12,901 bases of DNA from Deinococcales bacterium (lineage in GTDB: Bacteria > Deinococcota > Deinococci > Deinococcales > JAAFIG01), in NCBI GenBank assembly GCA_043778225.1, contig JAYWGM010000096.1, forward strand, positions 1 to 12,901. The letters are read 5' to 3'. Shown piece after piece: positions 1 through 12,901 of the stretch. The translations under genes and the position numbers were made by a program. The notes under the pieces were generated by a model. It ran no database searches, was not told where the DNA came from, and saw only the letters and a list, made by a program, of their open reading frames with translations. The stretch's first letter is position 1; the number at the start of each line of letters is the position of its first letter.

Positions 1-72
1 ATGAGGTATGTTCAAGAATTACTTTTAAGACTTATGCGACAAGCTCGAGATATTTTAGGGAGGTGCGCATGA
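1..72 (+). CDS. Probable 3' end of an upstream gene of unknown function (partial)
   Basis: Frame 1 is open from base 1 (MRYVQELLLRLMRQARDILGRCA*). Its TGA (70-72) overlaps the cas3 ATG at 69 in an ATGA arrangement like other junctions in this operon. Only 23 codons are visible, so it could be chance. Confidence 0.4.
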   Translation: MRYVQELLLRLMRQARDILGRCA

Positions 73-2264
73 AACCAGAATACGCGGCGCACACACCAAC
101 GGAAGCCAAAGACCCAACAGCACCTTGGCACGAACTGCTCGAGCATTTAGAGGCTGTGGCAAAAGATGCTGCTCTTTTTGCCAACAAATTTGGGGCTGCC
201 GAGCTTGCACATTGGGCTGGAATGCTGCACGACACGGGCAAATTCAGCAGTGCTTTCCAAAATTACCTGTGGCAAGCCCATGTTGCCGACCGCGATGGCA
301 CAAGCCCACCCGAAAAAGGCAAAGTAGACCACTCGAGCACCGGCGCGGTGATTGCTCGAGTCTTAGTCAGCACCACACCTAATGCCGCTGGTCTCGAGTT
401 GCCTTGGGTGATTGCTGGGCATCATGCTGGGTTAGTATCGCGATTAGCCTTAGAAACAAGATTGCACGAAAAATCTAACGATACCGTTCTGCTTGATGGC
501 GCAGCCAAAGCCCTTGCATGGCAAAAATTAGATTTTTTAGAAACCCAACCTCTGCCACTGCCAGAATTTGCTACACCACTCGAGCGCGAATTCTTTGTGC
601 GGATGCTTTTAAGTTGCCTTGTGGATGCCGACCACTTAGACACCGAAGCCTTTGGTAGCCCCCATAAAACCGTGCTTCGCAACCAAACCCAAACCAGCCT
701 GGAGATATTGCTTGAACGCCTAAAAGCCTCACAAATCCAAATTATGCAGCACGCCAAACCGACAGCCGTCAACCAAGCTCGAGCCAAAGTGTACCAAGCT
801 GCCTTGGACGCAGCAGATAAGCCAACAGGATTTTTTAGATTGAGTGTACCGACAGGCGGCGGCAAAACCAGAAGTTCTTTGGCTTTTGCTTTACAGCACG
901 CCATCAAGCACGGACTCGAGCGAGTGATTTATATCGTGCCATTTTTAAGCATCACCACCCAAATCGCCGAAGAATTTTGTAAAATACTGGGCAGCGAGAA
1001 TGTACTCGAGCATCATAGCGCGGTTAAAACCGATTCGGAAGAAGGTTTAACCAGAGCCAAACTTGCCACCGAAAACTGGGATGCCCCAATCATCATTACC
1101 ACCGGCGTTCAATTTTTAGAGAGTCTATTTGCCAATAAAACCAGTAAGCTCCGCAAATTACACCGAATTTCTAAAGCTGTACTGATTTTTGATGAAGCCC
1201 AAACACTGCCAGCCCCGTTACTGACCCCAATTTTAGAACTATTCCATCAACTGGTGGGGCGGTACCACTCGAGCATCGTTTTATGTACCGCCACCCAACC
1301 CGCACTAGATGCAAAAAGTGGCTTCCCAGACCTCAACGCTTTTGAAATTGCGCCCAATGTGCCAGATCTTTACAGCACCTTAAAACGAGTGACCTACAGC
1401 TTCCCAACCGAATTATGGGATTACACAAAAGTTGCCAAAGAAATAAAAAATCATCCCCAAGCGCTGTGCATTGTCAATACCCGAGCCGCCGCTCGAGAAA
1501 TTTGGCAAGCCCTAAACGACGACAACGCCATTCATCTCAGCACCCATTTGTGCGGCGCACACCGCTTGGAGAAAATTCGTGAACTCAAACAACGACTGCT
1601 CGAGCGGCAAGACTGTCGAGTTGTCAGCACCCAACTGATAGAGGCTGGCGTGGATGTCGATTTTCCAGTGGTACTGCGTGCTTTAGCCCCTCTGGATAGC
1701 CTCGTTCAAGCGGCTGGACGCTGCAACCGCAACATGAAGCTCGAGCGTGGACAGGTGATTATTTTTAAGCCACAAATTCCGACCATGCCCAAAGGCAATT
1801 ATGCGGTTGCCACCCTCAAAACCCAGAATCTGTTGCAATCTGGGGTAGACCTCGATAACCCAGAAACCTTTCTCGAGTATTTTAGGCAATTGCACCTGAC
1901 CCAAATAGATACCGATGCCAAGAATATCCAAGATCTGCGTCAGCGCTTTGACTACCCAGAAGTCTACAAAGCCTTTGGGGTGATTGAAAAAGACACCACC
2001 CCAATCCTGATTCGGCACTATGCCCCCGAGGTCGTTGCCAAAATACTAGAAGCAGGCGTGAACCGTGTAACCATGCGCCGCTTGCAACCGTACTTGATTA
2101 ACGTCTATACCCACAAACTTGTGCAACTCGACCGCGCCGCCCTGATACGCCCCTGCAAAGAATTATCGGGCTATGAAAAATTTGAACTGCTCGAATGGGC
2201 AGGCAAATACCACCCTCAACTTGGCATTCTCGAGGAGGTGGATGTGACAGAATTTGTGTGTTGA
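69..2264 (+). CDS. cas3: Cas3 HD nuclease-helicase, type I-C
   Basis: N-terminal HD domain (EHLEAV, LHDTGK, HHAGL, LVDADHLDT) fused to an SF2 helicase (PTGGGKT, DEAQ, CTATQP, STQLIEAGVDVDF, QAAGRCNR). ATG at 69 is preferred over GTG at 63 because GGGAGG lies at 58-63. Confidence 0.97.
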   Translation: MKPEYAAHTPTEAKDPTAPWHELLEHLEAVAKDAALFANKFGAAELAHWAGMLHDTGKFSSAFQNYLWQAHVADRDGTSPPEKGKVDHSSTGAVIARVLVSTTPNAAGLELPWVIAGHHAGLVSRLALETRLHEKSNDTVLLDGAAKALAWQKLDFLETQPLPLPEFATPLEREFFVRMLLSCLVDADHLDTEAFGSPHKTVLRNQTQTSLEILLERLKASQIQIMQHAKPTAVNQARAKVYQAALDAADKPTGFFRLSVPTGGGKTRSSLAFALQHAIKHGLERVIYIVPFLSITTQIAEEFCKILGSENVLEHHSAVKTDSEEGLTRAKLATENWDAPIIITTGVQFLESLFANKTSKLRKLHRISKAVLIFDEAQTLPAPLLTPILELFHQLVGRYHSSIVLCTATQPALDAKSGFPDLNAFEIAPNVPDLYSTLKRVTYSFPTELWDYTKVAKEIKNHPQALCIVNTRAAAREIWQALNDDNAIHLSTHLCGAHRLEKIRELKQRLLERQDCRVVSTQLIEAGVDVDFPVVLRALAPLDSLVQAAGRCNRNMKLERGQVIIFKPQIPTMPKGNYAVATLKTQNLLQSGVDLDNPETFLEYFRQLHLTQIDTDAKNIQDLRQRFDYPEVYKAFGVIEKDTTPILIRHYAPEVVAKILEAGVNRVTMRRLQPYLINVYTHKLVQLDRAALIRPCKELSGYEKFELLEWAGKYHPQLGILEEVDVTEFVC

Positions 2265-2296: not shown

Positions 2297-2983
2297 TTGG
2301 TTAGCCTAAAAATCTGGAGTGACTTTGCGTGTTTTACCCGACCGGAAAACAAAGTCGAGCGTGTCAGTTACGATGTCATGACCCCAAGTGCAGCGCGGGG
2401 TGTTTTGGAGAGTATATTTTGGAAACCCGAAATGCGTTTTTTAATCAGAGAAATCTGGGTTCTAAACCCAATCAAACGCTTTAGTCTGGTTCGTAACGAA
2501 GTCAAAAGCGTTGCCTTGAGCCGAGCTGCTAAATCATGGAGCGAACACGGTGGCGGGTACTTAGCCGATGAGGACCGCACCCAACGCCACGCACTGATTC
2601 TGCGCGACGTGGCTTATGTGGTCAAAGCCGAGATTGAACTGACCAAACGTGCGACCGACCCGTTACAAAAGTACACAGAAATTTTTAATCGGCGGGTCGA
2701 AAAAGGACAAGCCCACCGAATGCCGTACCTTGGCAACCGCGAATTCACCGCCAATTTTAGCCCTGTAGATGGCACAGAAACCCCGATTCTCGAGACCAAC
2801 GAACTGGGACGAATGCTGTTTGACCTTGAATTTCAAGTTCAGAAAAAAGGCGGGATTCAATTTAGGCAACACAGCCAAAACGGTAGTGTGGTCGTCGACG
2901 GAACAGCTACCCCAAAGTTTTTTCGTGCCAAACTCGAGCGTGGCATCCTAAAAATACCATCTGAACTTTATGGAGGTGCTTAG
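2297..2983 (+). CDS. cas5c: Cas5c (Cas5d), type I-C Cascade subunit and pre-crRNA processing endoribonuclease
   Basis: Signature N-terminus ACFTRPENKVERVSYDVMTPSAARG, plus IFWKP, RNEV, LRDVAY and PYLGNREF. TTG at 2297 is chosen over GTG at 2273 because of the strong RBS. Confidence 0.96.
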   Translation: MVSLKIWSDFACFTRPENKVERVSYDVMTPSAARGVLESIFWKPEMRFLIREIWVLNPIKRFSLVRNEVKSVALSRAAKSWSEHGGGYLADEDRTQRHALILRDVAYVVKAEIELTKRATDPLQKYTEIFNRRVEKGQAHRMPYLGNREFTANFSPVDGTETPILETNELGRMLFDLEFQVQKKGGIQFRQHSQNGSVVVDGTATPKFFRAKLERGILKIPSELYGGA

Positions 2984-4747
2984 ATGCTGCTCGAGCAACT
3001 GGTGCAGTATGCGGGCAAACTCGAGCGACAAGGCAAAACCTTGCCGTTTATGTACCAAGAAGCCCCGGTAAAATGGCTGATTTACCTGAATCAAGACGGA
3101 GTTTTTGAGCGTTTAGAAATGACCTCGAATGGTTTAGAAGGCAAGAAAAACACTGGCAAAGTGCTGCAAATCCCGCATTTATCGCGCCAAGGTGCTAAAG
3201 CCAAATTGCTCTGCGATGACGCGCCTTATGTGCTAAAGATGGCTCGAGAAAAAGACGACGAGAGCAAAGTGCCTTTTAAGCACGAACTTTTTAAGCAAGA
3301 ACTGCAAGAATGCTATGCCGCCACCGAACTACCCGAAATAAAAGCAATTCTGGCATTCCTCGAGACCCTGCCAATAGAATTGCCCGAAGGTTTTAATGCC
3401 AGCGATAGCCTGACATTTGTGGTCAACGGCATCATGCCAATCCATAAGACTGCCATTAAAGAATACTGGGCTGGTAAATTTTCGGTCGCCGAGACCGACA
3501 GTAAAGATAAGCCCACTTTTGCCGAATGCCTGATTTCTGGTGAATACGGCGCGGTGATGCGAATTGAGCCACTCAAAATAAAAGGTGGTGGTATACCCAA
3601 CGGTCAAACCAGTGGCATGAACATCGTTTCTACCGACAAAGACGCATTTGGCAGCTACGGCTTAAAAAGTCTCTCGAGCGCCCCGATTCGCTTACCGTTG
3701 GCGGTCAAATACGCCAACGCCTTAAATACCTTGCTGCGCGACCCAATCACCCATTTGCGGGTCGGACCAGCCGTTTATGCGTTCTGGACAAAAGAGCAAG
3801 ACACACCACCGGTGGTTGAAATCCTCAAAAATCCAAGTGCCTTATTTGCCAAACTCAAAGCCGGGCAAAGCATCCAAGAAGACCTGACCATAACCGCCAG
3901 CAGCGAACAGGTCAAAAAGTTAGTCGGCAGCATCTTTAGTGGGCAAACCCCGACAAAACTCGAGCCAGACCAATTCTATGCCGCTTGTTTCTCGGCCTCG
4001 GGCAGCCGTGTGGTCCTGCGAAGCTACCTAGCCAGTACAGTTCAGGAGGTTGGCGAACACTTGGCTCGTTATTTTTTAACCCAAGAATTGATTGATACCG
4101 AACCAATGGGCGTTTTTGAACTGAGCGCCAGCCTGTACCGCGATGCCAACAAAGAACTGACCACACCAATCATCAGCGCCTTACTCGAGAATGCACTCAA
4201 AGGCACACCTTTACCGCACAGCTACCTGATTCGCTTAGCCAACCGCAACCGCGCCGAACAGCGTATTACCAAACCTCGAGCGGTATTAACCCGCATGACC
4301 CTAATTTCAATTCGGAGGATTCGTATGGATGAACTGACCGCTTTACAACCCGACCACCCCAGTGTTGGGTATCAACTTGGGCGCTTAATGGCAGCCTTGG
4401 AGAGTTTGCAATACGCCGCTCTGGGCAAACTCAACAGCACCGTTGTGGACAGATTTTACGGCGCACTGAGCAGCACTCCGATTGTAGCCTACAGCCGCCT
4501 GATGGCAGGAGCGCGAAATCATGTCAGCAAGCTGGGCAAAGAAAGCGCTGGGGCGGCGGTGCGCGAAGAACAGCGCCTGCAACAAATCCATAGCCGAATC
4601 TCGAGTATTCCCACCCGTTTAGACCTCGAGGAACAAGCGATGTTCAGCCTTGGCTACTACCACGAAAAAGCCGATAGATTCGCCCAAATCCAAGCCGCCA
4701 AAGACCTCAAAGCCAACCCTCAAAACGCCACAGGAGGCAACCCATGA
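2984..4747 (+). CDS. cas8c: Cas8c (Csd1), type I-C large subunit
   Basis: 587 aa between cas5c and cas7c. Motifs CLISG, AFGSYG, YANALNTLL, GYQLGRLMAALESLQ, VVDRFYG and EEQAMFSLGYYHE. GGAGG RBS at 2972-2976. Confidence 0.95.
   Translation: MLLEQLVQYAGKLERQGKTLPFMYQEAPVKWLIYLNQDGVFERLEMTSNGLEGKKNTGKVLQIPHLSRQGAKAKLLCDDAPYVLKMAREKDDESKVPFKHELFKQELQECYAATELPEIKAILAFLETLPIELPEGFNASDSLTFVVNGIMPIHKTAIKEYWAGKFSVAETDSKDKPTFAECLISGEYGAVMRIEPLKIKGGGIPNGQTSGMNIVSTDKDAFGSYGLKSLSSAPIRLPLAVKYANALNTLLRDPITHLRVGPAVYAFWTKEQDTPPVVEILKNPSALFAKLKAGQSIQEDLTITASSEQVKKLVGSIFSGQTPTKLEPDQFYAACFSASGSRVVLRSYLASTVQEVGEHLARYFLTQELIDTEPMGVFELSASLYRDANKELTTPIISALLENALKGTPLPHSYLIRLANRNRAEQRITKPRAVLTRMTLISIRRIRMDELTALQPDHPSVGYQLGRLMAALESLQYAALGKLNSTVVDRFYGALSSTPIVAYSRLMAGARNHVSKLGKESAGAAVREEQRLQQIHSRISSIPTRLDLEEQAMFSLGYYHEKADRFAQIQAAKDLKANPQNATGGNP
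4314..4318 (+). promoter_or_regulatory. Internal Shine-Dalgarno site inside cas8c
   Basis: GGAGG 6 nt upstream of the in-frame ATG at 4325 (cGGAGGattcgtATG). Confidence 0.7.
4325..4747 (+). CDS. cas11c: Cas11c small subunit, translated from an internal in-frame start in cas8c (140 aa)
   Basis: In-frame ATG (offset 1341 nt from the cas8c start) with a GGAGG RBS, placed just before the C-terminal helical domain (MDELTALQPDHPSVGYQLGRL...). Internal Cas11 translation is established for type I-C. Confidence 0.78.
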   Translation: MDELTALQPDHPSVGYQLGRLMAALESLQYAALGKLNSTVVDRFYGALSSTPIVAYSRLMAGARNHVSKLGKESAGAAVREEQRLQQIHSRISSIPTRLDLEEQAMFSLGYYHEKADRFAQIQAAKDLKANPQNATGGNP

Positions 4748-5631
4748 AACACCTCGACTCGACTAAACGCCACGATTTTATGATTCTTTTTGATGTCACC
4801 GATGGCAACCCCAACGGCGACCCAGACGCAGGCAATTTACCGCGTGTAGACCCAGAAACCGGACAAGGCTTTGTGACCGATGTTGCCCTAAAACGCAAAA
4901 TTCGCAATTATGTAGACGCACTGCGCGGCAAAGAAGACCGCTTTAAGATTTATATTCAACAAGGCGCAGTCTTAAATGAACGCAATTTGCGCGCCTATAC
5001 TGCCCTAAAAAAAGATGCCAAAAAAGCCAACAGCAAGGATGTTTCCGAGACTCGAGCTTGGATGTGCGAAAACTTTTTTGATGTCCGCACCTTTGGCGCA
5101 GTCATGAGTACTGAAATCAACTGCGGACAAGTCCGCGGACCTGTGCAACTGACCTTTGCCCGAAGCGTAGACCGCATTTTGCCAATGGATGCCGCCATCA
5201 CTCGAGTTGCCCTGACCAAAGCCGATGAGAAAGCCAGCCGCGATGGCGAGACAGGCGAAAGCACCGCCTCGAGCGGCACAATCGGGCGTAAAGCCTTTAT
5301 TCCATACGGTTTATACGTCGGTTATGGTTTTTTTGTACCGAGTTACGCCGCCGATACAAAATTTGATAACACCGACTTAGAACTGGTCTGGCAAGCCCTG
5401 ATGAATATGTGGGACTTAGACCGCAGCGCCAGCCGTGGGCGCACCGCCTGCCGTGGCTTGTACGTTTTTAGCCACGATAGCGCCCTTGGCAACGCCCCCA
5501 GCCACAAACTTTTTAAGCGCATCCAAATTCCAAGCGTTGGGGTAACTCGAGCCTTTGAAGAGTACACCGTCCAAATTGATGATACTGACTTGCCTACTGG
5601 CGTGACCCTGACACGTTTACTCGAGGGTTAA
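4744..5631 (+). CDS. cas7c: Cas7c (Csd2), type I-C backbone subunit
   Basis: GNPNGDPDAGNLPR, VTDVALKRKIRNY, FFDVRTFGAV, GQVRGPVQ and DRSASRG motifs. AGGAGG RBS and ATGA overlap with cas8c. Confidence 0.97.
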   Translation: MKHLDSTKRHDFMILFDVTDGNPNGDPDAGNLPRVDPETGQGFVTDVALKRKIRNYVDALRGKEDRFKIYIQQGAVLNERNLRAYTALKKDAKKANSKDVSETRAWMCENFFDVRTFGAVMSTEINCGQVRGPVQLTFARSVDRILPMDAAITRVALTKADEKASRDGETGESTASSGTIGRKAFIPYGLYVGYGFFVPSYAADTKFDNTDLELVWQALMNMWDLDRSASRGRTACRGLYVFSHDSALGNAPSHKLFKRIQIPSVGVTRAFEEYTVQIDDTDLPTGVTLTRLLEG

Positions 5632-5632
5632 A

Positions 5633-6841
5633 ATGCGAAAAATTCTTGAGACCGTTCCAACCCTCGAGACTCCCAAGCTAACCACTTGGGAACTTACCCT
5701 AAAAACAATCACCCCAATGTTTGGCGGCAGTGCCAAAACCCGCGAAATAAACGCACAAAACCCGATTCGTCCAGCCAGCATACGCGGGCATTTGCGCTTC
5801 TGGTGGCGAGCCACAGCAGGAGCAGCCTTCTCGAGCAGTCAGGAATTATTTGAGGCAGAAAAAGCCATTTGGGGCAGTGGAGAAAAATATGGTTTGGTCA
5901 GCCTGCGGGTGCAGACACTCGATAACGGTGTGGAGATCGAACCATCTGAAATTGTCCCAGATAGAGGCACAGCCCAAAGTGGACCAATGGAAAGATTTTT
6001 TTTACATCCTTTCAACGAAAATCGTACCGAGAGACTTGCCGAAGCCGTTGGACGAAAAGAAATCAAGTTTCAATGCAGTTTGACCTTTCAAAAACCAACA
6101 ACACCAGCCCAGCAACTCGAAGTGAAAACAGCCATTCGTGCGTGGCTCGCATTCGGAGGGATTGGCGCTCGCACTCGGCGCGGTTGCGGAGCGCTCGAAG
6201 TAACTCAAGAGCGCTCCGAATGGCTACCCGAAAATCTCGAGCAACTAAAGACTTGGTTTTCGGGTGTGCCAGACCGAGCAATTGAGCGGACTTCTTTATT
6301 TGGCGGACACTTGCAATTTGGTGAAATCTGTACAGGTAGGCGCGACCAACCACCAGCTTTTGCGGCATGGCGCGAGCTTGGGCAATTCTGGACACGGTTT
6401 CGCAAAGGGCATTTCACCGAAAAACATCCGACTTTCAGTGCCATGAGCGGCGCTTCTTGGCATGACCACCGAGAATTGCAAAGTTTAGCTCCAACTGCCC
6501 AAGAAATCGAGTTGTCCAAACCATTTTATGGTTTACCACTGATTTATCAAAAATTTCGTGATGCTTTTAGTGGCGAAATAGAAGCAGTTCACCCACATGG
6601 ACGGCGTATGGCATCACCAATTATTTTGAAACCCATCGGTTTTGCCAATGGCAATGTACGGCCTTTGGTGCTGGTTTTACGCGCCCCCAGCCCAAAACGT
6701 ATCAAGATAAAGCGCCAAGAGGTTGACTTAAAACCGCCTCATTTTGATCGTGTTCTCGATGCCTTAAAAGCTCAAGACCCGCTCGATGCTATCTACAAAG
6801 CCGCCATCAAACACGGATTTGACAATGAGGTGCGCCTATGA
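5633..6841 (+). CDS. cmr1: Cmr1, type III-B RAMP subunit
   Basis: TITPMFGG, IRPASIRGHLRFWWRA, EKAIWG, G-loop FGGIGARTRRGCG, FYGLP and RRMASPIILKP. Confidence 0.95.
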   Translation: MRKILETVPTLETPKLTTWELTLKTITPMFGGSAKTREINAQNPIRPASIRGHLRFWWRATAGAAFSSSQELFEAEKAIWGSGEKYGLVSLRVQTLDNGVEIEPSEIVPDRGTAQSGPMERFFLHPFNENRTERLAEAVGRKEIKFQCSLTFQKPTTPAQQLEVKTAIRAWLAFGGIGARTRRGCGALEVTQERSEWLPENLEQLKTWFSGVPDRAIERTSLFGGHLQFGEICTGRRDQPPAFAAWRELGQFWTRFRKGHFTEKHPTFSAMSGASWHDHRELQSLAPTAQEIELSKPFYGLPLIYQKFRDAFSGEIEAVHPHGRRMASPIILKPIGFANGNVRPLVLVLRAPSPKRIKIKRQEVDLKPPHFDRVLDALKAQDPLDAIYKAAIKHGFDNEVRL

Positions 6842-8301
6842 GCTACCTGCTCGCTATTGCCATCGGACCAGTTCAAGATTTTATCGCTGCTGCACGGCGT
6901 ACCGCCGACCTTTATGCAGGTTCAGAGCTTTTAATGGAAGTCACTAAAAAAATTGCTTTGGATCTACAATCCAAAAATGCAAAGCTGATTTTCCCAAGCG
7001 AACCTGAGCAGGGCGGCGCAAATAAAATCCTTGCCGAAGTCTCGAGCGACCCGACTGAACTTGTCAAAGCCCTTAAAGCCTTGAGCCGAGATTTTTTACA
7101 AAAGGAATGGAGCAAAGCCTACTCGAGTTTTTCGGATAAAAACGCCGTACATGAGGCTCGAGCCACAGCCCAAATAGAGAATTTTCTCGAGATTTACGCT
7201 GCGTGGGTGGAGTTAGACGATTACAAAAATTCGCGTTTGCAAGTCGAGCGCTTACTGGCTGGACGCAAAGCCTTACGTGATTTTACGCAAACGCTGGGCA
7301 ATAATGCAGGCATCCCTAAAAGCCCACTTGATGCTTCTCGAGCCAGTGTTTTGAGCAATCCAGCATTGCTTGCGGATGCCACTGCCAGCTATAAGCCTCT
7401 GCGCCTAAAAGCCACCGAACATTTGGACGCAATTTCTTTGCTGAAACGTATTTATGGCGTAAGCACAACCAAAACTGTGATTGATACCCGAACAATGGCG
7501 AGACGCGCAAAAAATCCTGCGGTCGTACCCAGTGAGCGCCAAGAAGACGATGATACGACCACCGAAGCCCAACCGTATTATGCAATTTTGCACGCTGACG
7601 GCGACAAAATGGGTGACTTGATTGGGAAATTAGGAACACCAAAGGCACATCAGGAATTCTCGAGTACCCTAGCGGGGTTTGCTTCGGGTGTGGAAGCCAT
7701 CGTTAAACGGCATTACGGTTTTAAGATTTATAGCGGCGGCGATGATGTGCTGGCGTTTTTGCCGGTCAATACTGCCATTGCTTGCGCTCGAGAACTGGCA
7801 ACGGATTTTGCGAACAAACTGCCCGAGGCTTCTTTATCGGTGGGCATTGCCATAGTCCATTACCGCGAGCCGCTTTCGATGGGTCTTGATTATGCTCGAG
7901 ATGCCGAAAAAGCCGCTAAAAATAAATCTGATACAGACCCAGACAATCACGGCAATCGTTTAGCAGTGGCGCTCCATACACGCGGCGGCGCTCCTATGAC
8001 CGTGGTTGAACCTTGGAATAAGCCAGCCTTAGAAAAATTACTTGGGCATTATCAAACACAAACGGTCTCGAGGGGATTGGCTTACGAATTAAAACAATTG
8101 GCTCGAGAATGGGATAAAACTGCTTTACCAATGATTGCTCTACAAGCCGAAGCCAAACGTATCGCAGCCCGAAAAGAAGGTGAGACGCTCGAGATTCCAC
8201 CACTCGAGTCAGTCAAAGACCTTGAAGCTTTTGCCAAAAAACTTGTGTTGGTGAGATTTTTAAGTGGATTAGGAGGCGAAGATGCCAAGCAAGATATTTG
8301 A
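6838..8301 (+). CDS. cas10: Cas10/Cmr2, type III-B large subunit, compact HD-less form with intact GGDD cyclase motif
   Basis: IGPVQDFIAAARRTADLYAGSELL at the very N-terminus, YYAILHADGDKMG, IYSGGDDVLAF (GGDD at 7735-7746), SLSVGIAIVHYREPL and AEKAAK. Confidence 0.96.
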   Translation: MSYLLAIAIGPVQDFIAAARRTADLYAGSELLMEVTKKIALDLQSKNAKLIFPSEPEQGGANKILAEVSSDPTELVKALKALSRDFLQKEWSKAYSSFSDKNAVHEARATAQIENFLEIYAAWVELDDYKNSRLQVERLLAGRKALRDFTQTLGNNAGIPKSPLDASRASVLSNPALLADATASYKPLRLKATEHLDAISLLKRIYGVSTTKTVIDTRTMARRAKNPAVVPSERQEDDDTTTEAQPYYAILHADGDKMGDLIGKLGTPKAHQEFSSTLAGFASGVEAIVKRHYGFKIYSGGDDVLAFLPVNTAIACARELATDFANKLPEASLSVGIAIVHYREPLSMGLDYARDAEKAAKNKSDTDPDNHGNRLAVALHTRGGAPMTVVEPWNKPALEKLLGHYQTQTVSRGLAYELKQLAREWDKTALPMIALQAEAKRIAARKEGETLEIPPLESVKDLEAFAKKLVLVRFLSGLGGEDAKQDI

Positions 8302-9403
8302 TATTCACGCTCCAAGCCCACTGCTTTTTCGGGATGGAAAACCCTTTGGTGCAGCTGGCGGAACAGAAACCAGCGCTCGGTCTTTGGCTGTGCCATTGCC
8401 CAGCACTTTGGCGGGTTTTATTCGGACTCAGATTGGAGTAAAAAGCAGTTGGAATTGGAGTGATGGCGATACCCTAAAAAATGCACACACCATCTGTGTA
8501 TCTGGATTACTGACCAGAGACCAAAAAATTGTTTTGCCCGCCCCTCGAGATGCGGTGATTTATAAAGACAAAGCCCAAATCCTACGAATGATGTGCTTAA
8601 AACCGCTCGAGTTACCAAACAATGCTGGCACAGACGCGCCTGAAAGTATAAATCCACTGGCAATTACGCAAGATGTCAAAGCCGAAACAGGGTACGCATT
8701 TTGGACAAAAGAAGACATGACGACGTGGTTATTAAACGACACACCAAATGCCGAAAAACTCGAGAAAATAGCGGGTTTGCCACTCGAGACTCGGGTTCAT
8801 GTGGCAATCAATAAAGATTCTAAAGTTGGCGAAGAGGGGCAATTATTCAGTGTTGGCTATCGCAGTTTTGAATCTAAATCAGAAGCTGGACACCATAGAT
8901 GGAGCATCCGCACTCGGGTTAAACTGCCCGATAAAACAGCTATTTCTAAACTTGGGCATTTGGGCGGAGAACGCCGTGCAGTGACACTCGAGGAACAAGA
9001 TATTGGCAACTGGTGGGATTGCCCGACTGAACTCAAAACGGCGATTCGCAACAGTAAGTACCTAAAACTTGTGCTTGCTACTCCCGCTATTTTTACCCAC
9101 GGTTGGAAACCCGCTTGGCTCGAGGCTACAGACAGCGCCAATATGCCCAAAGGCTTACATGGCCTGAAACTTAAACTGATTTCGGCAGCCATCGGCAGAC
9201 GCGAGCCGGTATCTGGTTGGAATATCCGCGAGAACAGCGCCAAAGCTGTGCGTTATATGGTTCCGGCAGGTAGTGTTTACTTTTTTGAATTGCTGGAAGG
9301 CAACCAAGAAAAAATTCTCGAGAACTGGCTCAAACCAGTTTCTGACAACGAACAAGACCGCAAAGACGGTTTTGGCTTAGCCCTTTGGGGAGTGTGGAAA
9401 TAA
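8282..9403 (+). CDS. cmr3: Cmr3, type III-B Cas5-family subunit
   Basis: PLLFRDGKPF, PLPSTLAGFIRT, LGGERR, LVLATPAIF, VSGWN, VPAGSVYFF and DGFGL. 20-nt overlap with cas10, with AGGAGG upstream. Confidence 0.95.
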   Translation: MPSKIFDIHAPSPLLFRDGKPFGAAGGTETSARSLAVPLPSTLAGFIRTQIGVKSSWNWSDGDTLKNAHTICVSGLLTRDQKIVLPAPRDAVIYKDKAQILRMMCLKPLELPNNAGTDAPESINPLAITQDVKAETGYAFWTKEDMTTWLLNDTPNAEKLEKIAGLPLETRVHVAINKDSKVGEEGQLFSVGYRSFESKSEAGHHRWSIRTRVKLPDKTAISKLGHLGGERRAVTLEEQDIGNWWDCPTELKTAIRNSKYLKLVLATPAIFTHGWKPAWLEATDSANMPKGLHGLKLKLISAAIGRREPVSGWNIRENSAKAVRYMVPAGSVYFFELLEGNQEKILENWLKPVSDNEQDRKDGFGLALWGVWK

Positions 9404-10248
9404 TGAACGTAAAAACTATTTTGTGGCAAGCAATTACACCGATTCATACCGGAGTCGGACAAACCTCGGCTGGAGTGATTGACTTACCAATTGCTCGAGA
9501 AACCGCCACCAATTACCCGATTATTCCAGCCAGCAGTATTAAAGGCGTTATTCGCGACGGGCGTGAAGGACTCGAGGCATATGGATTTGTGAACAAAGAA
9601 ATCGATGAACTTGACGAAAAAGGCAAAAAGAAAAAAATTAGTAAAGCCGCTGACCTCAGTTTTACCGACGCTCGAGTCTTGTGCTTGCCTGTGCGTTCAT
9701 ATAAAGGCACTTACGCACTTTTGACTTGCCCGTTGGTGCTGCAACGATTCGTTCGGGATTTAAGACTATTTGAGCAACAACCAAACTTTTTAAGCATTCC
9801 AAACCCAAAAGAAACCGAAGCATTGGTTTGTGGAGAGACCCTCAGCTTTGAGCAAAAAATCATTCTCGAGGACATAGACCTAGACTCGAGCCAATCTGCG
9901 GAAGCTGAAAGCATTGGCTTACATTTTGCCCAGCAATTATTTACTGACCAAACCGAGCAAAAGATTTTTCGTGAAAGGTTCGCAATAGTCCACAACGATA
10001 TTTTTGCCTTTTTTAGTGAAACCGCCATGGAAGTCAGCGCCCATATTGCACTTGAACCCGAGACAAAAACCGTCAATAAGAAAAAGGGCGCTCTTTGGTA
10101 CGAAGAAGCCATTCCAGCCGAAGCCATCTTCTCGAGCTTTGCGACTTCTACCACGGGTAATTTTAGTGAACTCGAGCAGCAAAACCAAGTGCAAATAGGT
10201 GGAAAAGCCAGTGTCGGACGTGGCTTACTGCGAATGGTGGTGCGCTAA
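9403..10248 (+). CDS. cmr4: Cmr4, type III-B backbone endoribonuclease
   Basis: TPIHTGVG, GVIDLPIARE (catalytic Asp position retained), IPASSIKG, DARVLCLPVRS, LWYEEAIP and QIGGKASVGRG. ATG at 9403 overlaps the cmr3 stop (TAATG). Confidence 0.96.
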   Translation: MNVKTILWQAITPIHTGVGQTSAGVIDLPIARETATNYPIIPASSIKGVIRDGREGLEAYGFVNKEIDELDEKGKKKKISKAADLSFTDARVLCLPVRSYKGTYALLTCPLVLQRFVRDLRLFEQQPNFLSIPNPKETEALVCGETLSFEQKIILEDIDLDSSQSAEAESIGLHFAQQLFTDQTEQKIFRERFAIVHNDIFAFFSETAMEVSAHIALEPETKTVNKKKGALWYEEAIPAEAIFSSFATSTTGNFSELEQQNQVQIGGKASVGRGLLRMVVR

Positions 10249-10634
10249 TGCAAACCAGAGCGCAAAAAGATTTGCAAATGGCTTATGAACTGGTCTCGAG
10301 GGTACAAGAACAATACCCGGACGCTAAAAACGAAACAAAAAGTATTCACTCGCAACTCTGCAAGCAATTCCCAATTATGGTTTTACAAAGTGGTCTGTGT
10401 CAAACACTGGCTTTCCATGCTGACAAAGCCAAAAAAGATGATGCTCGAGCCAAAGCGCATCAAATTATTTTGCAGCACATCGCTCAAATAATGAACGTCG
10501 AAACAGCCTTAACAAGCGTACAAACCTGCGGTGTACTCAAATACATATATTTCACACGCCGAATTCTCGAGGCTTGGGTGTTCTTTAAGCGCTTTGCCGT
10601 CAGTGCGCTCAAGCTTGAAAAAGAGGTGACGTGA
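10248..10634 (+). CDS. cmr5: Cmr5, type III-B small subunit
   Basis: 128 aa helical protein between cmr4 and cmr6, with MQTRAQ, FPIMVLQSGLCQTLAF and WVFFKRFA motifs. Confidence 0.92.
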   Translation: MQTRAQKDLQMAYELVSRVQEQYPDAKNETKSIHSQLCKQFPIMVLQSGLCQTLAFHADKAKKDDARAKAHQIILQHIAQIMNVETALTSVQTCGVLKYIYFTRRILEAWVFFKRFAVSALKLEKEVT

Positions 10635-11608
10635 TGCTTGCACGACGTAAGGATTTACAACAATACGGCTACGGCGACCATGCAGGCTTAGCGCTACAAA
10701 AATTATTAAAACAGCACGACGAAAAAAGCGAATCCGCCAAAGAACTCCTGAATGCCATTGGTCAATTAACCTCGAGTGATGCGTACAAAGCCGCTTTTGA
10801 ACGCTGGAAACTCAACTTGCCTCGGTCTCGGCTCTTGTTGCCTGCCACAACCAACAGCGCCCTAGCGATTGGACTTGGCAATGCCAGCCCAATCGAAGTT
10901 GGCTTAACGATTCATCGGATTTACGGCACACCATACTTGCCCGGCAGTGCGATCAAAGGCTTACTGACTCGAGCCGCCGATGCCCATGGTTTAAGCCCTA
11001 AAGACATAGAAATTTTGTTTGGTACAACCGAAAGCGCCGCGCACATTGTCTACTGGGATGCGATGCTCGAGCCAAGCAGTACAAACCCATACCAGCAAGA
11101 CGTGATAACAGTACATCACCAAAAGTATTACGGTTCGAGCGGCCAAGATGGCTACCCAACAGATTTTGACGACCCAATTCCTGTGGCGTTTTTAAGTGTC
11201 AGACCAAACACCAAATTCTGTGTTGCCCTCTCGAGCAACAGCCAAGGGGCTGAGCCGTGGTTATGGCTGGCAGCCGAATTATTACAATATGCCCTCGAGA
11301 AGATGGGCTTAGGCGGCAAGACCAATTCGGGATATGGGTATTTTGATATGCGCTTGCCCGAAAAGCTAAAAAGTAACACCGAACTTGCCGTTGAGCTTTT
11401 TGACGCAAAAAAAGTCTTGATTTTGCAGATAGATTCTGCCCAAGCCCTGACCAAAGCCGACCCTATTATTGCCGAACTCGAGCGTATTGATCCAAAAATT
11501 CGCCGTTCAACAGTCGAGACTTTGCAAAAGCAACTACAAAGTATAAAGCAATGGAATCTCGAGAAATCTCGGTGTCAGAAAATAGCCGCCATGCTGGAGG
11601 AATTATGA
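10634..11608 (+). CDS. cmr6: Cmr6, type III-B RAMP subunit
   Basis: LAIGLGNASPIEVGLTIHRIYGTPYLPGSAIKG, DVITVHH, PTDFDDPIPVAFL and G-loop GLGGKTNSGYGYF. Start is ATG 10634 (TGATG overlap) or GTG 10631. Confidence 0.95.
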   Translation: MLARRKDLQQYGYGDHAGLALQKLLKQHDEKSESAKELLNAIGQLTSSDAYKAAFERWKLNLPRSRLLLPATTNSALAIGLGNASPIEVGLTIHRIYGTPYLPGSAIKGLLTRAADAHGLSPKDIEILFGTTESAAHIVYWDAMLEPSSTNPYQQDVITVHHQKYYGSSGQDGYPTDFDDPIPVAFLSVRPNTKFCVALSSNSQGAEPWLWLAAELLQYALEKMGLGGKTNSGYGYFDMRLPEKLKSNTELAVELFDAKKVLILQIDSAQALTKADPIIAELERIDPKIRRSTVETLQKQLQSIKQWNLEKSRCQKIAAMLEEL

Positions 11609-12636
11609 GACTGATTATCAACACCGTCGGTACAAGCCTGCTCGGCAACGCCAAACGCCATAACCTCGAGACCGACACAGGAATTCTTGCGTACCTAAAT
11701 CGTGAACCTCGAGCCGCTAGTGCCGAAACCAATGCACTTGACCGTTTGCTTGCACCAAACGACCGTGCCGTGCTGCTTTATAGTCAAACCGTTGAAGGGC
11801 AACGCTGTGCTCAGTTAATTCAAGCTCATGTTCAAAAAACGCATCGCTGCGAAATCGAAGAAGTAAAGGGTTTGAGTTATGCCGAAAAAGGCTTTGTGCA
11901 ACACGGACTTAAAAACTTTGTGCAGATGCTGGCAAAGCATATCCGCGATGCAAAACGCGCCCATCTAGAGCCAATTATCAACGCCACCGGCGGATTCAAA
12001 GCCGAAATTGCTTACGCGACCGCCGTTGGCTTGGTGTTTAAGACTCCGGTTTGTTATATCCACGAAAAGTTTGGCGATATTGTGACCCTACCAGTTACGC
12101 CTTTTGGCTGGGACTCGAGTATTTTTGCACTGCATCAAGATTTTTTTGATTGGATAGATTCCGAGCCGCGCTCGAGCCAAGACGTACAAACTAGGACGGC
12201 AGGCTTGCCCGAAGAAATCAAGATGCTACTCGAGGCTGCCCAAGATGGAACAACCACGCTCTCACCGCTTGGCGAAGCCTACCTGAGTGCTTTTAGGCTT
12301 GAAAAAGAGACAAGCACTATAGAGATTTTGGTCTCGAGAAAAGCACGCCGTGATTGGGATGGTTTTGACCCGAGTACCCAAATAAAATATGCCAATGTTC
12401 TTGAAGCTTTGCGCTTAAAGAATCGCTCTGGTCGGTCTGAAAAGAAAAGCGGTGGCGGAGACGCGTATGGGTATCCGACAGGACATACCGACGAACGTAT
12501 CTTCTATGCCTTTGAAAACAAGGCACTCTACATTTTTGAATTTACCAAACACGGGCGTGACTACGACCAGTTTTGTAGCAATGGCTTACGCTGGCTCGAG
12601 TATCCACGCCAAGAATTTACAAGGTTTGAGCCATGA
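11605..12636 (+). CDS. cami1: CARF-domain (APE2256-type) effector with C-terminal RelE-like ribonuclease domain; Cami1-like
   Basis: CARF motifs INTVGTSLL, ASAETNAL, INATGGFKAE and CYIHEKF. A linker ending in TLSPLGEAY is followed by about 100 aa with a RelE/ParE-like pattern (ILVSRKARRDW...DERIFYAFENKALYIFEFTKHGRDY). Start ATG 11605 has GGAGG at 11596-11600 and an ATGA overlap with cmr6. The CARF call is secure; the RelE call is by eye. Confidence 0.78.
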   Translation: MRLIINTVGTSLLGNAKRHNLETDTGILAYLNREPRAASAETNALDRLLAPNDRAVLLYSQTVEGQRCAQLIQAHVQKTHRCEIEEVKGLSYAEKGFVQHGLKNFVQMLAKHIRDAKRAHLEPIINATGGFKAEIAYATAVGLVFKTPVCYIHEKFGDIVTLPVTPFGWDSSIFALHQDFFDWIDSEPRSSQDVQTRTAGLPEEIKMLLEAAQDGTTTLSPLGEAYLSAFRLEKETSTIEILVSRKARRDWDGFDPSTQIKYANVLEALRLKNRSGRSEKKSGGGDAYGYPTGHTDERIFYAFENKALYIFEFTKHGRDYDQFCSNGLRWLEYPRQEFTRFEP

Positions 12637-12901
12637 ACGAACCCTCTCAGATTCCGCTCTCGAGCCTGATGCACTACGCTTACTGCCCGCGCCGTTGTGC
12701 TTTGATTCACCTCGAGAACATCTGGGAGGACAACGAATACACCGCCAAAGGTACACGCAACCACACGAAAGCCGATGAACCCACGGTCGAACTGCTCGAG
12801 GGCGTCCGCATCGAACGGGCATTGCCACTCTTTAGCGATGCGCTCGAGTTAAGCGGTCGTGCCGATGTGGTCGAGTTTCTGCCCGACGGCACACCGTTTC
12901 C
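12633..12901 (+). CDS. cas4: Cas4, type I-C adaptation nuclease (5' part; truncated by window end)
   Basis: Absent from the ORF track; translated manually from ATG 12633: MNEPSQIPLSSLMHYAYCPRRCALIHLENIWEDNEYTAKG...ERALPLFSDALELSGRADVVEF. Has the first Fe-S Cys (YCPR) and the RecB motif G-x-A-D-V-V-E. ATGA overlap with the upstream gene. Confidence 0.95.
   Translation, partial: MNEPSQIPLSSLMHYAYCPRRCALIHLENIWEDNEYTAKGTRNHTKADEPTVELLEGVRIERALPLFSDALELSGRADVVEFLPDGTPF

Follow-up and report, generated by a model that had tools for sequence, protein, structure and literature searches.

We report that a complete type III-B cassette whose Cas10 has no HD domain has been inserted into a type I-C operon, where it separates cas7c from cas4, in the stretch of DNA analysed here, a window of 12,901 nucleotides that makes up an entire contig (G000:C96). 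We lean towards the reading that the Cmr complex takes up crRNAs that Cas5c cuts out of the I-C array, and then signals to CARF effectors. This reading is favoured by the tight coupling of cas7c to cmr1 and of the CARF gene to cas4, by empty sites, by the co-occurrence of the cassette with cas7c and by the structure of the repeats, and it is weakened by a cas6e gene with a I-E array in the source genome (G000) and by stand-alone Cas6 in most relatives.

A type III-B cassette within a type I-C operon

All 12 genes of the window, identified with Pfam, NCBIfam and PADLOC, lie on the + strand in the order cas3-cas5c-cas8c-cas7c-(cmr1-6, CARF-RelE)-cas4, with tightly overlapping junctions. Membership of type I-C follows from the presence of cas3, cas5c, cas8c and cas7c and the absence of cas6 from the window. 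The cas3 gene (63..2264; TIGR01587, TIGR01596, PADLOC Cas3c) encodes an HD nuclease and helicase of the I-C type, 733 amino acids long. The predicted pre-crRNA endonuclease gene cas5c (2297..2983) encodes 228 amino acids from a TTG start at 2297 with a ribosome-binding motif upstream, an alternative GTG start lying at 2273; its product scores above the TIGR01876 cut-off and matches the solved Cas5c structures 3KG4, 3VZI and 8DEX with E about 1e-43. Within cas8c (2984..4747; 587 amino acids; TIGR01863), an ATG behind GGAGG is a likely internal start of a 140-residue + strand frame (4325..4747), which from I-C biology we presume to be cas11c. On its left side the inserted cassette meets the operon at the stop of cas7c (4744..5631; 295 amino acids; TIGR02589).

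The cassette itself is assigned to type III-B because all six Cmr proteins score above NCBIfam cut-offs: cmr1 (5633..6841; 402 amino acids; TIGR01894), cmr2/cas10 (6838..8301; 487 amino acids; TIGR02577), cmr3, whose product is the subunit binding the 5' handle (8282..9403; 373 amino acids; TIGR01888 and PDB matches), cmr4 (9403..10248; TIGR02580), which is open from 9385 and has an ATG with a ribosome-binding motif at 9403, cmr5 (10248..10634; 128 amino acids; TIGR01881) and cmr6 (10631..11608, its stop ending at 11608; 325 amino acids; TIGR01898). The final cassette gene (11605..12636; 343 amino acids) encodes a Cami1-like CARF7-RelE effector that matches the PADLOC model CARF7-CARF_RelE with E 1e-140 and 8PHB, which we take to be Cami1, with E 1e-15. 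Its fusion of CARF to a RelE-like domain agrees with the definition of Cami1 (PMC11229360). Beyond it lies an I-C type cas4 (12633..12901; PADLOC Cas4c), truncated by the contig end. All seven cassette genes are intact. Motif inspection of Cmr2 finds GGDD at residue 300 and no HD domain, and in alignment the protein is about 70 residues shorter than 9ARW_A between the palm domains; Cmr4 retains the conserved Asp in IDLP.

None of the Cas6 models of Pfam, NCBIfam or PADLOC matches any of the 12 genes, and since the successive intergenic gaps (32, 0, -4, 1, -4, -20, -1, -1, -4, -4 and -4 nt) never exceed 32 nt, there is no space for a cas6 between them. The observations from which an earlier note on this DNA had set out, namely that the window holds no Cas6-like open reading frame and that neither end of the cmr cassette is cut off, are therefore confirmed, the cas7c-cmr1 and CARF-cas4 junctions both lying inside it. 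We did not find cas1c, cas2c or an I-C array in the G000 assembly, which is 89% complete; the array is missing because the contig breaks inside cas4. In run X1 a 2,007-nt unitig takes the sequence on from position 12804 as far as 2,178 nt past the cas4 start, which agrees with the cas4-to-array distance of 2,149-2,159 nt in four close relatives and, judged by length only, leaves no space for a downstream cas6. The same run assembled 1,964 nt upstream of the window, the gene content of both flanks being read from length alone. Scans for promoters and terminators gave results at chance level.

Conservation of the nested arrangement in relatives

I-C cas7c is present in 28 of the 29 sampled Deinococcales genomes with the short HD-less Cmr2, but in only 4 of 16 with ordinary Cmr2 alone. 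When three more relatives are added to the 29, the cassette lies immediately 3' of cas7c in 28 of 32 genomes, and in 31 it is found together with genes or repeats of the I-C type, while Cas6 and I-E are variable; as the cassette loci are related, these genome counts are non-independent. The nested cassette is usually followed by cas4-1-2 and then the I-C array, and cas4-cas1-cas2 with a 37-nt hairpin array is present in loci L076, L077 and other relatives. In G068 the cassette instead sits after the I-C array, and in G042 it lies beside its own array, with a repeat identical to that of the genome's separate I-C locus. Two distinct I-C effector sets partner the cassette (cas8c at 86% in L077 versus 26% in L076). 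Empty sites are found in L260 and in the plain I-C locus L261, whose cas7c is 92% identical and adjoins cas4. The nested cassette spans several Deinococcales families, its carriers including cultured species of Meiothermus, Calidithermus, Thermus and Deinococcus, and a metagenome scan returned no close relative. No cas6 was found in any cassette locus of those relatives that show the nested or I-C-associated arrangement. Locus L094, which falls inside the Cmr3 clade but is equipped with a cas6, an RT-cas1 and an array of its own, speaks against supply by Cas5c.

Cas6 in the source genome and in relatives

The earlier note proposed that this Cmr either accepts Cas5c-processed or host-trimmed crRNAs from an I-C array or borrows a Cas6 encoded elsewhere. 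This alternative was correctly framed, and comparative genomics favours Cas5c as the candidate supplier. The genome-wide HMM search that the note suggested has two sides, in that it yields no stand-alone Cas6 in G000 and does yield cas6e, which on contig C80 belongs to a complete type I-E locus whose array has 44 repeats. Searches with PF10040, TIGR01877, PF01881, PF09618, PF09609, local profiles of 9 and 19 sequences, tblastn and a G-loop motif scan together returned cas6e only; PF09559 had no match anywhere, so this profile says nothing on G000. Neither a stand-alone Cas6 nor an array belonging to the III-B system itself was found in the 89% complete assembly, and many III-B systems are missing a stand-alone Cas6 or an array of their own.

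In the relatives Cas6 is common. Stand-alone Cas6 occurs in 25 of 31, mostly with type III arrays, and cas6e in 21 of 31; all seven near-closed relatives (≤4 contigs) encode Cas6 elsewhere, and in only G015 and G252 among the 32 genomes was neither Cas6 nor Cas6e found. A cas6 with a cognate array elsewhere, which the earlier note had named as evidence against its proposal if Cmr-bound crRNAs came only from it, therefore does exist. Neither PF10040 nor a local Cas6 profile detects a stand-alone Cas6 in G000, G083, G110, G251 and G252, each of which has one clear Cas10. We rejected genome-level absence of Cas6 as an argument for Cas5c supply because it failed the control with ordinary Cmr genomes (5 of 29 carriers versus 2 of 16, p = 1.0). 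G015 was also dropped as a clean Cas6-free case, since it has a III-A locus and type III arrays; its weak Csb2 match proved to be antisense within an unrelated long gene.

These results bear on the strongest rival explanation, which is that the cassette is merely lodged in the I-C operon, for its promoter or through co-transfer, and receives 8-nt-handle crRNAs from elsewhere, the processing enzyme being Cas6e in G000 and, in most relatives, a Cas6 of type III or I-B. We regard this as a real but doubtful possibility. It draws on the Cas6 genes and the I-E array just described, on L094, and on two known systems: the Marinomonas III-B system employs Cas6f-cut I-F crRNAs (PMC5576922), and in Thermus thermophilus HB27, as far as the available portion of that study reports, III-A and III-B with an ordinary Cmr give no interference with the I-C repeat (PMC12102369). 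However, it leaves unexplained why the association of the cassette with I-C genes or repeats persists when Cas6 and I-E are gained and lost, and why G042 retains an I-C-repeat array next to the cassette. Moreover, the I-E handle mismatches the I-C 8-mer at 6 of 8 positions, and outside the Thermaceae-like family stand-alone Cas6 occurs in 2 of 7 carriers. In a post hoc comparison this differs from the ordinary Cmr genomes, of which 14 of 16 have one (p = 0.011), but gives p = 0.24 when only the 5 ordinary Cmr genomes outside that family are used.

Repeats, handles and Cmr3

Folding gives an 11-nt tail in 9 of 14 distinct cassette-adjacent repeats, as in plain I-C repeats. The tail ends in a type III-like 8-mer, and these bacteria also have several repeats cut by Cas6 whose type III tag is this 8-mer. 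Homology, repeat folds and the literature support the prediction that Cas5c cuts the I-C repeat and leaves an 11-nt handle; in HB27, according to the part of the report at hand, the two Cas6 enzymes leave the I-C repeat uncut and Cas5c cuts it (PMC12102369). Cmr3 has 17 clade-specific columns, including a two-residue insertion (E29, T30), a pattern indistinguishable from shared ancestry. We suggest only tentatively that this Deinococcales Cmr clade is specialised for partnership with I-C and that its Cmr3 may accept the untrimmed 11-nt Cas5c handle, the insertion in the N-terminal loop being a conceivable adaptation. Spacer strands in shared arrays give at most a weak signal of mRNA targeting (53.0% versus 46.5%), the gap ranging from 0.5 to 6.9 points across nine model variants and reversing in the cmr-side array of G042; an amino-acid model of spacer strand failed its positive control, and the spacers of one array had no match in a phage collection.

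A second explanation accepts use of the I-C array but credits the making or finishing of the 5' end to a Cmr subunit or an RNase of the host instead of Cas5c. Its model is the Synechocystis III-B variant, in whose crRNA maturation RNase E reportedly has a role. That variant resembles the case proposed here in a handle longer than 8 nt, a 13-nt tag made without Cas6 (PMC5965381), and RNase J is present in G000. It differs in having its own array and reportedly using host RNase E. We nevertheless consider this explanation improbable, since RNase E/G (PF10150) was not found in G000, nor in Thermus and Deinococcus controls, and since the operon itself encodes Cas5c, the enzyme known to cut repeats of this type. 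That the G000 cassette is a silent or decaying passenger with no crRNA supply is very unlikely: damaged cassettes do occur in two of seven Cas6-lacking genomes versus none seen in 25 (cmr1, 4, 5 and 6 lost in G072, cmr3 frameshifted in L077) and G000 shows no I-C array, but its seven genes are intact, GGDD and the Cmr4 Asp are kept, and the contig break accounts for the missing array.

Discussion

If Cas5c does feed Cmr, a single transcript would yield both the I-C and the Cmr complexes, and the shared array would be filled by the I-C Cas4-Cas1-Cas2. Cas5c would cleave at the base of the repeat hairpin to give the 11-nt 5' handle, of which Cmr3 is predicted to bind the last 8 nt, and the three extra nucleotides may protrude or be trimmed, RNase J being an available 5' exonuclease. 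From what is known of these families, target RNA would then activate the Cas10 cyclase, and cA4 would turn on the CARF-RelE mRNA interferase, or in relatives Csx1 or a CARF-nuclease. Such Cmr signalling may serve as a PAM-independent backup for I-C DNA interference.

Several known systems share part of this arrangement. HB27 belongs to the same phylum, processes its I-C crRNAs by Cas5c only and has an I-C repeat identical to that of G068, but its I-C and type III loci are separate, its type III systems depend on Cas6-2, and the short nested Cmr does not appear in the portion of that study available (PMC12102369). In Marinomonas mediterranea, with III-B use of I-F crRNAs and chimeric III-B/Cas6f loci, a type I enzyme and array feed a III-B effector (PMC5576922), and VmeCmr of Vibrio metoecus likewise has an HD-less Cas10 and signals to an effector (10.1101/2021.09.13.460032). 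In both, however, the enzyme is Cas6f with an 8-nt handle, whereas the partner in the window is I-C Cas5c with a predicted 11 nt, and the cassette described here, unlike theirs, is enclosed by a whole I-C operon. Composite type I and type III loci also combine one cas1-cas2-cas4 set and one type I repeat with two interference modules, but in the accessible parts of the surveys most of them pair type III with I-B or I-A, subtypes that do have Cas6 (PMC7145637; PMC8482600), I-C/III making up 3 of the 85 shared-array cases given there (PMC8482600). Moraxella bovoculi has a I-C and III-B pair for which the sections available report no cas6 (PMC12827968); this pair and the three I-C/III genomes count in favour of the Cas5c reading.

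The earlier note called the cross-type route unusual. This does not hold in general, as III-B is already known to use crRNAs of types I-F, I-A and I-B; a Cas5c, non-Cas6 version would be new. In the literature searched we found no experiment on Cas5c-cut crRNAs feeding Cmr, and all experimentally shown cases of type III use of type I crRNAs that we found involve an 8-nt handle produced with an enzyme of the Cas6 family. Supply of Cmr by Cas5c, if true, would break this rule and would either measure the tolerance of the handle pocket or bring to light trimming at the 5' end, a question that is directly testable because cultured species carry the cassette. The very small cyclase-only Cas10 (487 amino acids) may also be of use in cOA-based diagnostics. 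If the clade is indeed such a dedicated I-C partner, a single operon without Cas6 would supply two complexes from one crRNA pool, a Cascade that cuts DNA and a Cmr that senses RNA and signals through cA4.

Results

Gene content and limits of the window

Twelve genes lie on the forward strand of the window, in the order cas3, cas5c, cas8c, cas7c, cmr1-cmr6, CARF7-RelE and the start of cas4. The successive intergenic gaps are 32, 0, -4, 1, -4, -20, -1, -1, -4, -4 and -4 nt, which leaves no space for a cas6 between them, and none of the 12 genes matches a Cas6 model; the earlier note's reading that the window has no Cas6-like ORF is thus borne out. No CRISPR array lies within the window either. 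Cmr4 retains its Asp motif, and Cmr2 (487 aa, 6838-8301) retains GGDD and lacks the HD domain. Between the palm domains, Cmr2 proteins of this clade (480-505 aa) are about 70 aa shorter than 9ARW_A, which also lacks HD, and have no cysteine cluster; by sequence they appear to be a minimal cyclase Cas10. An internal start at 4325, inside cas8c, likely belongs to cas11c.

The window is an entire contig of an assembly that is 89.4% complete and whose sole cas1 and sole array are both type I-E, so the end of the I-C locus is absent from the assembly. In sequencing run X1, a possible source of the window, each end of the window connects to a unitig about 3.5 times as deep as the locus core, which suggests several locus variants with common flanks in one community. 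The downstream unitig stops 2,178 nt past the cas4 start, and the cas4-to-array distance in four relatives is 2,149-2,159 nt; judged by length, the sole basis here, this flank fits cas4-cas1-cas2-leader with no additional gene. Upstream, 1,964 nt are assembled, a position at which WYL and TPR genes occur in relatives.

The cassette is an insertion in type I-C operons

The nearest Cmr2 proteins are from Deinococcales. The short Cmr2 occurs in 29 of 251 genomes of the phylum, this one included, and 16 carry only the ordinary longer form; cas7c is present in 28 of the 29 but in 4 of the 16. In the exception, G248, the cassette lies on a contig that stops just beyond cmr1. When G251-G253 are added to the 29, the cassette lies immediately 3' of cas7c in 28 of 32 genomes. 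Besides G248, the others are G009 (cmr1 and cas7c each at contig ends), G068 (cassette after the I-C array) and G042 (cassette with its own array, its repeat identical to that of a separate I-C locus). Typically one or two CARF genes, cas4, cas1c, cas2c and a 37-nt-repeat array follow the cmr genes, and cluster representatives of the remaining ORFs of these loci include no Cas6; in more distant Cmr loci, 9 of 113 scanned neighbour ORFs are Cas6. Two loci of the same family, L261 and L260, are empty sites with cas4 directly after cas7c, which identifies the cassette as an insertion. The Cas8c proteins of relatives' loci L077 and L076 are 86% and 26% identical to that of the window, Cmr2 being 68-70% identical in both, and on these sequences the cassette is associated with two distinct I-C effector sets. 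Since carriers are related, counts across genomes are not independent events.

In the Cmr3 tree, the 30 I-C-linked proteins form one clade (support 0.997), which also includes L094 (7497-21491). This locus, in an actinobacterial MAG, has a divergent cas6, an RT-cas1 and its own different array, and its Cmr was probably acquired by horizontal transfer. In two Armatimonadota-type loci (L092, L107) an I-C-type array adjoins cmr1.

Other loci vary in detail. The slot between cmr6 and cas4 (L076, L077, L083) holds CARF-RelE alone or together with Csx1 or a CARF-PD-D/ExK nuclease. Many relatives have, upstream of cas5c and behind a TPR gene, a Cas3 frame of about 1,080 aa (L079, L081, L083) that is apparently WYL-fused; in closer relatives WYL and cas3 are separate genes. 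The hybrid locus of G083 (C37) has no adjoining cas3, which is split across two contig ends (C11/C86); its array precedes cas4, and its Cmr3 has a 15-aa N-terminal duplication. In G193, of the same genus, two ordinary Cmr loci adjoin reverse transcriptase genes; the fetched stretches (L271, L272) contain no cas6, and a Cas6 lies on another contig.

Repeats and handle

Nine of 14 distinct cassette-adjacent repeats have a predicted hairpin with an 11-nt tail, AGGATTGAAAC, and the other five have tails of 6, 8 or 10 nt owing to extra weak pairs; plain I-C repeats fold in the same way. This agrees with the 11-nt handle that the accessible parts of two papers report for Cas5c (PMC5965381, PMC5965380), as the earlier note had stated. 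The final 8 nt of the tail also terminate several type III repeats that are linked to Cas6 in the same bacteria. The palindrome CTCGAG, which recurs in the hairpin stems of I-C repeats from many relatives, is highly iterated: the genome has 24,878 copies, where base composition predicts about 931, and the window has 82.

Discussion

The most economical account, which we favour with modest confidence, is that the two systems share operon and array. Gene order, the insertion and the fold of the repeats are observations, and loading of crRNA, the length of the handle and signalling are inferences. Cas5c would cut the array transcripts, Cascade and Cmr would be supplied from one crRNA pool, and Cmr3 would recognise the last 8 nt of the handle; the three surplus nucleotides may protrude or be removed by RNase J, which the genome encodes (RNase E/G was not found in it), and Cas10 would signal to the CARF effectors. 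Cami1, by definition a CARF-RelE protein, is cA4-activated, according to the part consulted of PMC11229360.

The main rival, which we hold possible though rather doubtful, is that Cmr borrows crRNAs cut by Cas6 or Cas6e, the other route that the earlier note had offered beside Cas5c-cut or host-trimmed I-C crRNAs. For a stand-alone Cas6, the genome gave no match to PF10040, TIGR01877, PF01881, PF09618, PF09609, two local profiles or tblastn (PF09559 matched nothing anywhere, even controls). PF08798, however, finds cas6e (E 3.5e-42) on another contig, C80, in a complete I-E locus of 44 repeats, so a Cas6-type enzyme with a cognate array elsewhere, the first of two findings that the earlier note had counted jointly against Cas5c supply, does exist. 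Compared with the final 8 nt of the I-C repeat, the predicted 8-nt I-E handle is mismatched at 6 of its 8 positions.

Among 31 relatives, 25 have a PF10040 Cas6, including all seven with four or fewer contigs, and 21 have cas6e; a local Cas6 profile that matched two controls also found none in the six negatives. In the 20 stretches fetched around relatives' Cas6 genes, each Cas6 belongs to another CRISPR locus, most of these with their own arrays, and G110, one of the six negatives, has four exact copies of a type III repeat. G015 was discarded as a Cas6-free case, as a second Cas10 and type III arrays are present and some of its bases are withheld. Apart from it, G252 alone has neither enzyme, and that genome is a draft whose cmr3 is frameshifted, so genome content is compatible with borrowing. 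Of the 16 genomes with ordinary Cmr, 2 lack a Cas6 match, and in both of these the cassette sits on short contigs; of the 29 with the short Cmr2, 5 lack one (p = 1.0). In a post hoc split, Cas6 is present in 2 of 7 carriers outside the Thermaceae-like family against 14 of 16 ordinary-Cmr genomes (p = 0.011), or against 4 of 5 ordinary ones likewise outside that family (p = 0.24). Damaged cassettes occur in 2 of 7 Cas6-lacking cases (G072, L077) and in 0 of 25 others, three of which end at contig ends (p = 0.04).

If Cmr uses the I-C array, an excess of spacers antisense to mRNA is expected. By a codon-phase model with 72% accuracy on host genes, 53.0% of 702 spacers are antisense-like in 20 carriers, which are mostly from other families than the plain I-C controls. 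The corresponding share is 46.5% of 1,105 spacers for the 28 plain I-C arrays, and for type III arrays it is 63.8% of 210. This model gives p = 0.011 per spacer and 0.006 per genome, but across nine variants the gap between carriers and plain arrays is 0.5-6.9 points, with Fisher p < 0.05 in two. The cmr-side array of G042 runs in the opposite direction (29-43% of 35 spacers), and plain I-C arrays of thermophiles give 48-57% of 122. An amino-acid model gives 56.4% against 49.6%, but its positive control failed.

Several known systems bear comparison, as far as the accessible parts of the papers go. In T. thermophilus HB27 the I-C repeat is cut by Cas5c and by neither Cas6, and repeats are not observed to be cross-used (PMC12102369). 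M. bovoculi has the same subtype pair, I-C and III-B, without cas6 (PMC12827968). I-C with type III accounts for 3 of 85 genomes with shared repeats in Vink et al., and Deinococcales are not named in the five of its supplements searched as text (PMC8482600). Most composite type I/III loci involve I-B (PMC7145637, PMC12814883). Use of I-F crRNAs by III-B has been demonstrated (PMC5576922; 10.1101/2021.09.13.460032), but the processing enzyme there is Cas6f, whereas Cas5c is proposed here. A search largely confined to openly accessible literature found no paper on a Cas5c-fed Cmr or on this locus, including Meiothermus I-C with III-B. The arrangement proposed here would be a new variant of the known sharing of crRNAs by systems of types I and III, its novelty lying in non-Cas6 processing. 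The locus is worth testing because, if this account is true, the processing enzyme would not be Cas6.
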